A stretch of DNA of 62,367 nucleotides, counting the filler, from Globobulimina sp. (lineage: Eukaryota): NCBI GenBank assembly GCA_003354225.1. It is 32 parts of 32 records of this genome, joined end to end, with 100 filler letters (N's around TTAATTAATTAA, not from the genome) between each part and the next. Parts side by side here need not be neighbours in the genome. Positions count along the whole stretch, not along the records: positions 17,578 to 19,430 come from PIVH01011218.1; 31 more parts are not named here. One strand, 5' to 3'. The translations under genes were made by a program, and so were the position numbers. This document shows, one piece after another, positions 310 through 45,729 of this stretch. Within the stretch, counting starts at the first letter, position 1, and every line of letters starts with the position of its first letter. The notes beneath the pieces were generated by a model, which saw only the letters and a list, made by a program, of their open reading frames with translations, did not search any database and had not been told where the DNA came from.

Positions 310-1782
310 TTAGTTTGAGTGTTTGGTGCTGTCCGTGTTAATGGTACTGGTACATTCAACAACTGCATTACTAATGTTGTCAATCGATTGTTTCTGTTTC
401 ACTTTCATAGCGGTGTCTAAATATGAAATGGAAGAAATCCAAATTGTACCACCAATAACTATGCCTATTAAGGCGCAGTATTGGGATGAAATAAAAAATG
501 ATCTTTCATTGATTGCAGATACCAAAAATATATTGAATAAGGCACCAAAGACTTTGCCGAACTTAGCACCCAACATTTCCACTGCAATTTTAGCTTTATA
601 TTTTTCTTCATTATTTAGATATAAATACGCAATTTCTTTTGTTGGATCGCAGGTAGAATACTTCAATGACTTTTCGAATGTAAGAATTGCTGCACCAACA
701 AGCACCATAACAGCGCAGGCGGGCAACTGAGGGAGAAATTGCATCGATTGTTCATCCCAAATATGTTGCGGATTATTAATGCCATACAAATAAAAAACAA
801 GTGAACCAAACACTAATACCACTGGACACATCAAAGCAGTAATCTTCCAACCAACTATTCTCAACGCATTGTGACCTCCAAACATCATTGCAAAAAAAGT
901 AAGTACCGCAGTGAATGTAGTGACCAATGCACGATACTTAGTGTAGCCATTGGGACATCCACTGAAATAGAGATGCAATATATCTTTCCACGTATGCTCC
1001 ATGATAGAATTTAGCCAGTTATAACCACAAAGTATTCCAGCAACACTTAGTATATATTTATGCGAAAACGTAAATGATAATATTTGCCAAATTGAAAACT
1101 TTTCTTGCGTTTCTATCTTCGATATGTTCAGCAACTGTTTTTCCGAAATTCTAAACTTTGCTGATTTCATTAATTTAACGCGCACATAAAAGTACACGAT
1201 CATCATAACCAACATGATGGAGACACCAATAACGGTGACAAATTGATAGGACTCTGTGAATTGTTGAGCATCGCCAGACCCACTCGATGTATTCATTAGT
1301 GATGAGACTATGGTACCAGATATAATCGGGCCGGCTTGCGACAAAATGCCTATTGTCACATAATATCTTCTGGCCGCAGCTTTTGGTGTTATATCATTGA
1401 CAAAACCAAATACCAATATTGAGATACTAAGTGTTCCCCAAATGTCTGCTGCTGCGAATTGTAACGTGTTTATTGGGTAAAATAAGGCGCCGCATAATGG
1501 GATAACAATACGGATGGAAGTCTCCGAGGAACAATGTTCATGAATATACTGGTTGGCTCTGGCAAAGTATTTATGTAAAGCTGCACGATTAGGATGCAAA
1601 CAAAATGCATGAATCAAGAAGAATGATGTAAACGTAATAGTGACTGATGCGAAAATAAAATCTTTTGATACTACAGTTGATAGCTTCATTAATATCATTG
1701 TTATTAACAGCGATAAAGGCAGTACAAATAAGACATGCGCCCATTGCAATGGAATAGGTGTTTGGTCCCCTTCTGACATAAC
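310..1782 (-). CDS. TLC/NTT-family ATP/ADP (nucleotide) transporter, 5' partial
   Basis: Multi-pass protein with TLC motifs: VLPLSLLITMILMKLS, DIWGTLSISILVFGFVNDIT..AARRYY, MEHTWK, KSLKYSTCDPTKEIAY, KAKIAVEMLGAKFGK. Probable intron acceptor (CAG) just upstream of 1782. Confidence 0.88.
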   Translation of the reverse strand, partial: VMSEGDQTPIPLQWAHVLFVLPLSLLITMILMKLSTVVSKDFIFASVTITFTSFFLIHAFCLHPNRAALHKYFARANQYIHEHCSSETSIRIVIPLCGALFYPINTLQFAAADIWGTLSISILVFGFVNDITPKAAARRYYVTIGILSQAGPIISGTIVSSLMNTSSGSGDAQQFTESYQFVTVIGVSIMLVMMIVYFYVRVKLMKSAKFRISEKQLLNISKIETQEKFSIWQILSFTFSHKYILSVAGILCGYNWLNSIMEHTWKDILHLYFSGCPNGYTKYRALVTTFTAVLTFFAMMFGGHNALRIVGWKITALMCPVVLVFGSLVFYLYGINNPQHIWDEQSMQFLPQLPACAVMVLVGAAILTFEKSLKYSTCDPTKEIAYLYLNNEEKYKAKIAVEMLGAKFGKVFGALFNIFLVSAINERSFFISSQYCALIGIVIGGTIWISSISYLDTAMKVKQKQSIDNISNAVVECTSTINTDSTKHSN

Positions 1783-17477: not shown

Positions 17478-18053
17478 NNNNNNNNNNNNNNNNNNNNNNN
17501 NNNNNNNNNNNNNNNNNNNNNTTAATTAATTAANNNNNNNNNNNNNNNNNNNNNNNNNNNNNNNNNNNNNNNNNNNNGAATGGTTACAAGTTGTTGAAAA
17601 TCGACCACATAAATGTAGTCTTTTTGATGATATAAATCGAAATATTTGGGAAAGCGAAATATAAGCGGAATATAAGAGCAAGCCCTTTGGTTAAGCATCA
17701 AAACTCCAGCTACAAACAAAAACACGTTTATTTGGAATCTCTATTGCATCAAATTTGGTTTTTTGGCTCTCTCTCATAATTGGGAGTTAATTTTTAATTT
17801 TTAAAAGTAAGAGAAATAAGATTGATAGAGGAATAAACAAATAGCGAAAATATACTGCTGTATTTTATCCAGTATTTAGTTGAGATCCAAATGAAAACTA
17901 AAGTTTGATTTTAAAATCAAAAATACTATTTTTCTGTTTCAAAATAACCATTTTGTGGTTTAAAAACTGTGATATAGAAATCAAATGGCAGAAATGCAGC
18001 ATAAGGTACCTACGTTTCTGAAAGGTTTGTTGACCTGTTTATTTTTCAGTACC

Positions 18054-18168
18054 CCAGAGAAAACTACTGACACACAATAATGTAGTCTGTCTAGTGTTTG
18101 TATTTGGCGCCTTCCAGAGAAAACTACTGACACACGTGTAGTCGTCTAGTGTTTGTTTTTGGCGCCTT
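18054..18168 (+). repeat. Two tandem 60/55-nt structured direct repeats
   Basis: CCAGAGAAAACTACTGACACAC..TGTAGTC(T)GTCTAGTGTTTGTWTTTGGCGCCTT at 18054-18113 and 18114-18168. Confidence 0.9.
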
Positions 18169-18445
18169 AGCTTTAGGCGCCAAACTTTCTCTTGTTATTT
18201 GGGAAACCAAAAACCATCTGGCCGCCAGCTGCCCATCTGTGAACACAAAGGTTAAAGAAAGGATACCTTTCCTTTCCCTTGCCATTTGAGCCTGTTCTTT
18301 AGGCCAAATGGTTGTATGGGAGCTCAACGTCTCCCTCTAACATACATACAACAGCAAATTATCTTGCAGTCACAAAACGGACAGTATAAACTTTTGGTTT
18401 ATTACTGTATTTAATATAGCTTACAGCTACTTTATAGAAGCTTAT

Positions 18446-18591
18446 ATCTGGGAGCCGACACATACGTCATTAGCCCCATGATAGAAGAGTCATTATTATG
18501 AACTCGATGAAGCTTATCTCTGGGAGCCGACACATACGTCATTAGCCCCATGAGCTCTGGGAGCCGGCACATACGCCATTAGCCCCACGAG
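18446..18591 (+). repeat. Three 37-nt hairpin repeats with compensatory substitutions
   Basis: Copies at 18446-18482, 18518-18554 and 18555-18591. Consensus MTCTGGGAGCCGRCACATACGYCATTAGCCCCAYGAK. Confidence 0.92.
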
Positions 18592-18806
18592 ATTGTTTGC
18601 AACATAGTCATATTGACTACATTCTTATGTGACTGAAAAGTTGGGTTTATTTAGCCCATGGGCATAGTTGAATTAATTAACCTCTGGGAGGAAACAGAGA
18701 TTACTATATAAAATTTGAATAAAATAAAAGGGAGTCGCAAGGACCTCTATGTAGTATGCAACTGTAAATGGAAAATAATAGAAATGTCTCTGGTCATATT
18801 AGCGCT

Positions 18807-18844
18807 GCACCTGAAGATGCCCTTCTGGGCGAAACCGGTCGTGC
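18807..18844 (+). ncRNA. Minimal type I hammerhead ribozyme
   Basis: Stem I GCAC/GTGC; core CTGAAGA(T); stem II GCCC-TTCT-GGGC; GAAAC; palindromic minimal stem III ACCGGT; GTC cleavage triplet ending at 18840. Confidence 0.88.
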
Positions 18845-19530
18845 TTTAAATCCTACGATTGGTGCTAATTTTTCTGGAGACTAGACTATTAATTAGTGCA
18901 CTTTGTAAGAGACACCCAAAATTGAGTTGGGTTTTGTGAAACATCAAGCTTATAATTTTGGTTAAAAACCATAGACGATGGAATGTAGAGGGTCAAGTTT
19001 AATCAGTTGGTCCCCTGCCGTGCCCTGGCACTACATATTTACATTGACTTTTTGCGGGAGTGATCATTTGTCACCTGCGGAGGCTTTTAGCCAAAGTAGA
19101 TGGATGGTTTGACTAGGCTCGCTGTACCTTGTGTTTGTTGATTATGCCACATGAGAAATTAATGAGCATTTCTCTTCTTGTTCGCTTTGATGCAGAAAAG
19201 TAACCAGGGCAAAAATAAGGAGCATTTTATTGCTAAAAATTGAATTGATTGGTAAAATTTGCACAACGAAAAATAAGCTACATAAATGGGTTTTCGAAAA
19301 TGTTTTCTGTCGATTCATAAAATAGGACAAATTAGTCCAAGAAGAAAAATAGTACTAAATGTATTTTTGAATTGGTTTTCTTGTGATTTATAAAATCGGC
19401 CAAAATGGGCAAAGGAGAAAAAATCATTTTNNNNNNNNNNNNNNNNNNNNNNNNNNNNNNNNNNNNNNNNNNNNTTAATTAATTAANNNNNNNNNNNNNN
19501 NNNNNNNNNNNNNNNNNNNNNNNNNNNNNN

Positions 19531-29324: not shown

Positions 29325-30083
29325 ATCCCAACATCTCATCCGACCCCACAACCAACCCCTAAGCCTACATATCTTCCCACCATAAATCCGACAAGCTCTC
29401 CGACTGCACACCCAACAACTGACCCCACTAAAAATCCCACATTTGAGCCGACTACATTGCCCACATTTAACCCAACTATACCACCAACATTTGAGCCTAC
29501 GACAAATCCAACTGTAGTACCAACAAGAAATCCCACCTTTGAACCAACAACGGAGCCTACATTTGAGCCCACAAACAACCCCAGCTTCAATCCTACAAAT
29601 AACCCAAGCTTCAATCCAACAACAAATCCTACTGTACCACCAACAACAAATCCTACATTTGAACCAACTGTGAAACCAACATTTGAGCCTACAAATAACC
29701 CCAGCTCCAATCCAACAAATGCTCCCACAGCTGAACCAACTTCCAATCCAACAACAAATCCAACGTTTGACCCAACAACTGATCCAACACTTTATCCTAC
29801 CATTAACCCTACTGACAATCCAACAAGTAAACCAACTGTAAATCCATCAAACATTCCAACAACTAATCCTATTATTGAACCAACAGCACATCCAATAAAA
29901 AGTATGTGATGCATGAATGATAAATAACTAACATTGTTTATGAAATATTATATAGGACCAAAACCCAATGAGTATGAATGGTATGATACAAATGAATTAG
30001 CTAGAAACTATTGGCAAAAATCTGATAAACATTCTGATTCGAATTCTAATCACGTTCAAATTAATGTACATTTTGATAATTAA
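29325..30083 (+). CDS. PT/NPT-repeat (mucin-like) surface protein, 3' exons (intron 29902-29955)
   Basis: Dozens of xxPT tetrapeptide repeats. An in-frame GT-AG splice leads to a terminal exon. Confidence 0.7.
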
Positions 30084-45002: not shown

Positions 45003-45729
45003 AAAACCTTGCCAATCACAAAAGAAGTGTTTAGAAGTTTAAGCCTAAAAAGCAATTGTTCTTGCGTGAGATTGGAACCACACATATTATTTATTTGTTT
45101 CTCGCGATATACATGGATTTCTTTGGAGTAATTGACTTTTTGCTTCCTGTGAAATGGTTGGTGGTTAGAACGATTTTACGGTTTTCCAGTTTTTGCAGAC
45201 TGGCTTGCTTTTAACAGTTTAATTTAACAGATCGAGCTGGTCATTTTTTAACGCCGTATATATACGGCATTAGTATGCATATACAACACGTACAATCCAA
45301 ACGAAAATTAACACACATTTGTACTCAACCATTGCGTCTCCTATGATGATCTAGTGACTTTCGACTCAATACCTGTATTGATCACATACTCAGAAACATC
45401 ACAAAACTATTGATAACAACTGTAACATAATCAATACAGATATTTTAAATAACGTTGTAATGTAACAACTGTAATGTTACATAAATAACGTTGTAATCAA
45501 TACAGATATTTGTGGTTGGTTTGATTGTGTGTTTTTGTGTTTGGTTGGCTGGTCTTTGCGTGATGTGATGTGATGATTGGGATTTGAACCCAAATCTTCT
45601 TCAATAAGATGCTTTTTTAAGCTGTCATCACTTTAAATAAATTATATGAATTAAGCGACTTCGATCGTCGCTCATATTAGATAAATAAAACGTGTCATTT
45701 TCACACGTTTGAGCCATGAATATTTGCAT

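Follow-up and report, generated by a model that had tools for sequence, protein, structure and literature searches.

The presence of three near-identical 37-nt hairpins within 146 nt of a gene-free stretch of the Globobulimina sp. assembly raises the question of whether their common fold is kept by selection on a folded molecule or has been generated by mutation at the DNA level. The hairpins lie on a contig of 1853 bp (17578-19430) in the window, i.e., the whole stretch of 62,367 bases analyzed, which comprises 32 pieces of 1851-1853 bp each, joined by N44-TTAATTAATTAA-N44 linkers that also bound the hairpin contig at both ends. Being short contigs from a fragmented assembly, the pieces offer no context beyond a linker. 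Repeats and inverted repeats that run across linkers, such as pairs I1-I3, are artefacts.

Regarding coding content, the longest stop-to-stop ORF of the hairpin contig is 70 aa, compared with at least 134 aa in each of the other 31 contigs, which carry long ORFs under the standard code (e.g., actin-family and TLC ATP/ADP-transporter). The hairpin contig is the only one of the 32 without a long ORF and has no coding potential. GC content is ~25-40% over the contigs of the window, 36.5% in the hairpin contig and 51-65% in the hairpins themselves. Under the mitochondrial code (code 4) no ORF beyond 116 aa was found on this contig, nor was any rRNA or tRNA, so that a mitochondrial origin was rejected; there was no sign of a bacterial origin either. 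A coding repeat was also rejected, given that no open frame is kept across the copies, the only ORF there being one of 46 aa on the minus strand, and the 37-nt period shifts the reading frame from copy to copy. The 46-aa ORF had no relatives among proteins of 25-81 aa, the length class to which the search was limited. Elsewhere in the window, the minus strand at 310-1803 has an ORF of 497 aa belonging to the TLC ATP/ADP-transporter family (E 6.7e-60), a type better known from plastids, intracellular parasites or symbionts, and a 194-aa ORF at 29325-29909 on the plus strand consists almost entirely of PT-rich short repeats (xxPTxxPT...).

The three hairpin copies were located on the plus strand at 18446-18482, 18518-18554 and 18555-18591. 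When copy 2 was used as a query with up to 3 mismatches, exactly three matches were obtained in the 62,367-base window (2, 0 and 3 mismatches for copies 1, 2 and 3, respectively), and no match appeared in any of 100 dinucleotide-preserving shuffles of the window. Copies 2 and 3 abut head-to-tail, their 37-nt period being called by Tandem Repeats Finder; copies 1 and 2 are spaced 72 nt, with a 35-nt spacer (18483-18517, plus strand) between them. The 9 nt 5' of each of copies 1 and 2 are common to both. This motif, GAAGCTTAT, belongs to direct-repeat family D2, contains the palindrome AAGCTT and is found directly 5' of hairpin 1 (18437-18445, plus strand) and again within the spacer (18509-18517); in self-BLAST, 18509-18553 matched 18437-18481 at 97.8% over 45 nt. 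The spacer also includes a small hairpin of its own (18487-18505; stem GAGTCAT / ATG-AACTC, loop TATT).

All three copies share the same RNA minimum-free-energy (MFE) fold, (((((((.((.(((......)))....)))))).))), i.e., a stem of 3 + 4 + 2 + 3 bp that is capped by an ACAUAC hairpin loop and interrupted by a bulged A, a C/AUUA internal loop and a second bulge (U or C). The fold energies of copies 1, 2 and 3 are -9.8, -11.3 and -13.4 kcal/mol, with z-scores of -2.1, -2.75 and -2.1 and equally good shuffles in 4, 1 and 7 of 200. The alignment of the copies has 32 invariant columns out of 37. Copy 1 carries an A-U closing pair, a GAC/GUC apical stem and a U bulge, copy 2 a C-G closing pair, and copy 3 a GGC/GCC apical stem and a C bulge; the variable columns are thus the pair 1/37 (A-U vs. 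C-G), the pair 13/22 (A-U vs. G-C) and the unpaired position 34 (U/C). Standard pairs occupy all 36 pair cells of the three copies. The original prediction had described three 37-nt hairpins with fold-preserving differences, the five variable positions representing two compensatory pairs and one bulged base, and it is borne out by the coordinates, the common MFE fold, the pair cells and the column analysis alike.

How far such differences argue for selection depends on how easily they arise otherwise. Covariation is seen in 2 of the 12 pairs, and 56 of 500 column shuffles reached the observed level; this control is weak with three sequences only, and it takes the varying columns as given. In a simulation where the same 2 + 3 substitutions were placed randomly on the ancestral unit, with 400,000 trials for each setting, only 1.1-1.8 x 10^-4 of the trials yielded two or more compensated pairs and no broken one. 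Some process thus maintains the complementarity of the arms, and both selection and templated mutation would fit.

A second locus supplies information on what has happened to the hairpins since. Scanning a metagenome collection for the hairpin core returned a single stretch, L001, which corresponds to bases 1-1127 of the 18,828-bp record PJEL010002097.1. Its accession prefix is that of the unassigned contigs of a metagenome associated with the foraminifer Globobulimina and obtained from pooled cells of two species, according to extracts of the source publication (PMC6783311), and the organism is for this reason termed foraminifer-like here. The publication also mentions assembled transcriptomes for that set of samples. 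The non-coding stretch homologous to L001, which belongs to a multi-copy family, spans 17850-18935 with 87% mean column identity when L001 is read on its minus strand (alignment A1, ~1.1 kb; 898 matches, 96 mismatches, 111 gap columns), and homology extends left to ~17780 as judged by eye. L001 carries all three hairpins in the order and with the copy-specific variants of the window, identical to copies 1, 2 and 3 at 507-543, 435-471 and 398-434 (minus strand), respectively. The two loci differ at none of the 111 hairpin positions, at 4 positions of the 35-nt spacer and by substitutions in 92 of 848 flank columns (10.8%). Based on base-specific flank rates, 12.07 changes would be expected in the hairpins, and the probability of finding none is 2.7 x 10^-6; flank G/C positions change no more slowly than others. 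Furthermore, every one of the 887 37-column windows that lie outside the hairpins contains at least one difference, and the longest perfect runs of alignment A1 (85 and 48 nt) both fall on the hairpin block. Since the split of the two loci the hairpins, including their loops, have remained unchanged. The copy-specific variants being identical in both loci, the triplication and the compensations are older than that split. By the same token L001 adds no independent covariation, and the distinct sequences number three in all.

This conservation does not extend to a larger structure. When the window was folded alone and the L001 changes were mapped onto the result, a conserved global fold was not recovered (37 pairs broken and 9 kept on the plus strand, 19 broken and 10 kept on the minus strand), and restricting the pair span brought no improvement. 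Long-range helices around the hairpins that RNAalifold proposed from the two loci (0 pairs broken, 2 compensated) were attributed to selection bias and rejected by the window-alone fold test. Structure outside the hairpins is not conserved.

Some further features of the contig were recorded alongside. At 18054-18168 a unit of 55-60 nt is tandemly duplicated in the window and single-copy in L001, and it ends in the left arm of a perfect hairpin, TGGCGCC-TTAGCTTT-GGCGCCA (18158-18184). A stretch at 17985-18050 on the plus strand (ATGGCAGAAATGCAGCATAAG, then GTACCT...TTTTTCAG) resembles a 44-nt mini-intron, with its putative donor site inside a 33-nt stretch (17997-18029) perfectly conserved with L001; the spliced frame stops after 13 codons and thus, if the intron is real, the transcript would be non-coding. 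A motif of ~16 nt, CACAnnAATGTAGTC, occurs three times on the contig, directly at 17606-17621 and 18073-18088 and inverted at 18615-18631. The inverted pair 18071-87 / 18615-31 (17 nt, 88%) does not stand out from chance pairs. The sequence AATGTAGTC has no other plus-strand occurrence in the window, and its complement GACTACATT is additionally present at 29450 and 49157.

The only four differences from L001 within the 146-nt block (18494, 18497, 18508 and 18509) are all situated in the spacer between hairpins 1 and 2, and they can be described as two events. In the first, the window sequence TCATTATTATGA (18490-18501) reads as the L001 12-mer in exact reverse complement, and the 4-nt loop of the small spacer hairpin is flipped. 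In the second, TG to AT at 18508-18509 (window to L001) lengthens the palindrome AAGCTT from 6 nt to the 10 nt of ATAAGCTTAT. Both events are hallmarks of template switching, and such a process is demonstrably active in the block; its quasi-palindrome signature was found in the spacer and not in the 37-nt hairpins. Template switching at quasi-palindromes has been described for RNA genes, where it yields loop inversions and compensated changes, in the available extracts of PMC8794818. The two loci match that description in a stem-sparing loop inversion and in a multi-base change that perfects a palindrome. However, what is described there is a mutational process and not a function, and it leaves unexplained the absence of ordinary substitutions in the hairpins against 10.8% in the flanks. 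The block supports both readings, as it reveals a DNA-level process able to fake compensation and, at the same time, a region of ~150 nt in which only changes that keep or strengthen pairing have been tolerated.

The stretch was found in one public sequencing run (X1), no RNA run being among those listed. Assembly contigs of run X1 were aligned to the hairpin contig at an identity of at least 80%, and 44 did align (16 at 99% or above, 7 at 95-99%, 12 at 90-95% and 9 below 90%). The summed contig depth, which derives from assembly contigs and does not represent copy numbers, was ~4.8 on the unique ends and 77, 57 and 40 over the hairpin bins, with a peak of 109.7 at 18818-18879. The L001-type spacer variant is present in the run at a depth of 20.5, and a third variant skips 18347-18430, so that at least three variants of the locus exist in one sample. 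None of the 40 variant rows listed, out of 61, falls inside a hairpin. From runs X2 and X3 no contig aligned to the hairpin contig. Given that several diverged copies occur in one sample, the window and L001 loci may be paralogues, and gene conversion could explain their identity.

With respect to the molecule and the strand, pairing alone leaves the choice of strand open, as had been predicted, since the stems are Watson-Crick only and the mirror fold forms on the minus strand. As RNA the hairpins fold well on both strands. As single-stranded DNA (ssDNA), the plus strand reaches -2.6 to -3.1 kcal/mol with z about 0, no better than shuffles, and the minus strand folds modestly (-5.1 to -6.8 kcal/mol, z ~-1.5 to -1.7). 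Sliding 150-nt windows across 18178-18627 gave z of -1.9 to -4.6 on the plus and -1.1 to -3.5 on the minus strand. The further claim of the original prediction, that selection acts on a single-stranded structure with invariant loops, stood in part. In its favor, the hairpins are constrained, loops included (0/111 vs. 92/848 in the L001 comparison), the symmetric changes among copies are far from random, and the RNA fold is much stronger than the ssDNA fold. On the other hand, it had left out of account that template switching, visibly active here, produces compensated changes without selection.

The main alternative is that the block is a functionless DNA repeat, namely a quasi-palindromic minisatellite that arose by replication slippage, had its arms symmetrised by intrastrand template switching and was homogenised between loci by ectopic gene conversion, with the hairpin-forming DNA serving as a break hotspot for conversion. 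We regard this as doubtful. Both events in the 146-nt block are palindrome-associated, template switching is credited with just such compensated changes and loop inversions in the extracted text of PMC8794818, tandem duplication is common at the locus, as the 55-60-nt unit at 18054-18168 illustrates, and the several variants in one sample mean that conversion partners exist. However, all 6 copies retain their bulges and the 1x4 internal loop, features that arm-to-arm copying would tend to erase. Homogenisation would also need two conversion tracts ending at the hairpin edges; one tract would not do, as all four differences fall between hairpins 1 and 2. Nor do G/C positions in the flanks mutate more slowly, and the DNA hairpin is thermodynamically weak.

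A second conserved core of the family, a closed three-way junction of 96 nt, is situated ~190 nt downstream of the hairpins at 18786-18881 on the plus strand (L001 93-199, minus strand) and contains the part of the family most deeply covered in run X1. On the plus strand it folds at -36.1 kcal/mol (z -4.05, none of 200 shuffles as good), compared with z -1.55 on the minus strand, and for its L001 equivalent the values are -2.87 (plus equivalent) vs. -1.53. Inspection of alignment A1 against the fold placed the two single-base deletions of L001 in hairpin loops of the element, which also includes a U-rich AAUUUUUCUGG stretch. Its plus-strand-specific fold points weakly to a plus-strand transcript of the family, a pointer by neighbourhood and not evidence on the hairpins themselves, and we infer the link between the two elements from their co-conservation. 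The 96-nt element resembles a hammerhead ribozyme in its three-way junction, in CUGAAGA preceding a GCCC/GGGC hairpin, in GAAA following it and in an A-U opening the third helix. It differs in that 8 additional nt separate helix I from the CUGA box and one more U stands ahead of helix II. Hammerhead identity was rejected on account of a G at cleavage position 17 (where a non-G is required), the 8-nt insert and a CUGANGA box not adjacent to helix I; no Rfam hammerhead family was listed for the element at E up to 10, and its core matched 0 stretches in viral contigs. It is conceivable, though unlikely, that an undescribed family of structured non-coding RNAs, present in multiple copies in a foraminifer-like protist, or else a non-autonomous retroelement, has the hairpin triplet and the 96-nt element as its two conserved cores; a dedicated protein would then use the hairpins as a multivalent site for binding or packaging.

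We consider it improbable that the hairpins are the cis signal of a mobile or self-replicating element, i.e., that the ~1.2-kb non-coding family is a non-autonomous transposon or retroelement whose enzyme recognises them as ssDNA (HUH-type, Helitron-like) or as template RNA (reverse transcriptase), their conservation then reflecting that only copies with an intact signal propagate. Such an origin would agree with a multi-copy non-coding family of 80-100% identity in which conservation peaks at the hairpins and at 18818-18879, and with hairpins that are GC-rich (51-65%) in a contig of 36.5% GC. However, none of the boundaries showed terminal inverted repeats, target-site duplications or a poly(A) tail, the hairpins sit inside the homologous stretch, the contig has no transposase or reverse-transcriptase ORF, and the hairpin core recurs in one other metagenome stretch only and nowhere else in the window. 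Specifically for a MITE or DNA transposon, self-comparison revealed no terminal repeats bounding the block and the window holds no further copies. A CRISPR array was rejected, as copies 2 and 3 abut without a spacer and other contigs carry eukaryote-type ORFs (actin-family). Bacterial REP/BIME clusters and the GC clusters and double-hairpin elements of fungal mitochondria are comparable, being likewise imperfect, GC-rich palindromes of ~35 nt that are found, often as tandem arrays, in AT-rich non-coding DNA. In contrast to the present case, they occupy tens to hundreds of dispersed sites per genome, whereas the hairpin core was found only here, in L001 and possibly in a few family members.

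Database searches yielded no known family for the hairpins. At the gathering threshold, the sole Rfam match in the window was a tRNA at 45569-45631 (minus strand, 43.6 bits), where ARAGORN does not report one, and there was none on the hairpins. Permissive Rfam scans of the contig, L001 and 18420-18620 returned only chance-level matches, at most 18.6 bits and below gathering, with E of at least 0.86. A covariance-model search (model R1) over 79,494 bases recovered only the 3 + 3 known copies of the window and L001. The next-best matches, with 13.4 and 11.4 bits, were two single partial ones that the hairpin core had in bacterial genome bins, and ~4 matches would be expected by chance for a pattern with 19 fixed bases when both strands of 596 billion bases are searched. 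No stretch in viral contigs matched either of two patterns of the hairpin core. Going by titles and the opening part of abstracts, none of the papers found on foraminiferal genome repeats or stem-loops concerns such elements.

The 3' UTR of transferrin-receptor mRNA contains a cluster of five iron-responsive element (IRE) stem-loops, and IRE clusters are comparable in design. They too consist of several hairpins of ~30 nt close together in non-coding RNA, in which the 6-nt loop does not vary and the 5' side of the stem has an unpaired C; their stems vary by compensated changes and their multiple sites bind one protein. They differ in the hairpin loop (CAGUGN vs. ACAUAC here) and in the upper stem (5 bp vs. 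3), and in our hairpins four nucleotides, AUUA, stand opposite the C. IRE membership was rejected, since loop and upper stem differ and Rfam gave no IRE family at E up to 10, and the analogy is one of design only. It is very improbable that each hairpin is a small-RNA precursor or gene of a tandem cluster: the hairpins are indeed tandem, conserved and stable as RNA, but no Rfam small-RNA family was found at E up to 10 and, to our knowledge, a 37-nt hairpin whose interrupted stem has 12 bp falls short of the known Dicer-type precursors in length. That repeat collapse created the copies or the identity between loci is scarcely credible, for although both loci come from short-read assemblies and run X1 contigs break inside the block, the window and L001 are separate records with the same three copy-specific variants in order and with different flanks.

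We thus tentatively favor the reading that the three conserved hairpins form an RNA cis-element in a non-coding transcript, with three identical protein-binding sites. They are the best-conserved part of a gene-free stretch and therefore probably work as a folded signal. This reading gains from the fact that the fold is the RNA MFE structure of every copy, is stronger than that of ssDNA and lies on a non-coding contig, and also from the non-random compensated pairs, the unchanged hairpins of L001 and the exclusively structure-preserving nature of the later changes in the block. It is weakened by the activity of template switching, the weak column-shuffle control, to which L001 contributes no further covariation, the possible paralogy of the loci, the unconserved structure around the hairpins and the lack of an Rfam match. 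According to the favored reading, one imperfect stem-loop would have been locally duplicated into three units, which would act in cis and single-stranded, most likely as RNA of a non-coding transcript from the plus strand. Such a transcript may represent a long non-coding RNA, an untranslated region or RNA derived from a non-autonomous repeat family. The ACAUAC hexaloop, the C/AUUA internal loop and the bulged A recur in every copy, and one sequence-specific protein would find three equivalent sites within 146 nt. RNA as the active form, the plus strand, protein binding and a relevance of the copy number are presumed in this proposal.

Under either reading, the finding is local in its reach. 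If the symmetry of the hairpins is due to template switching, the locus would be a clean natural example of that process and would show how it can imitate the compensatory pattern that commonly counts as proof of RNA structure. If, however, the hairpins do function as an RNA signal, they would rank among the first cis-acting RNA elements to be defined for a foraminifer-like genome, in a group whose non-coding RNA biology has barely been described, and their three identical sites would offer a ready handle for pulling down the binding protein.
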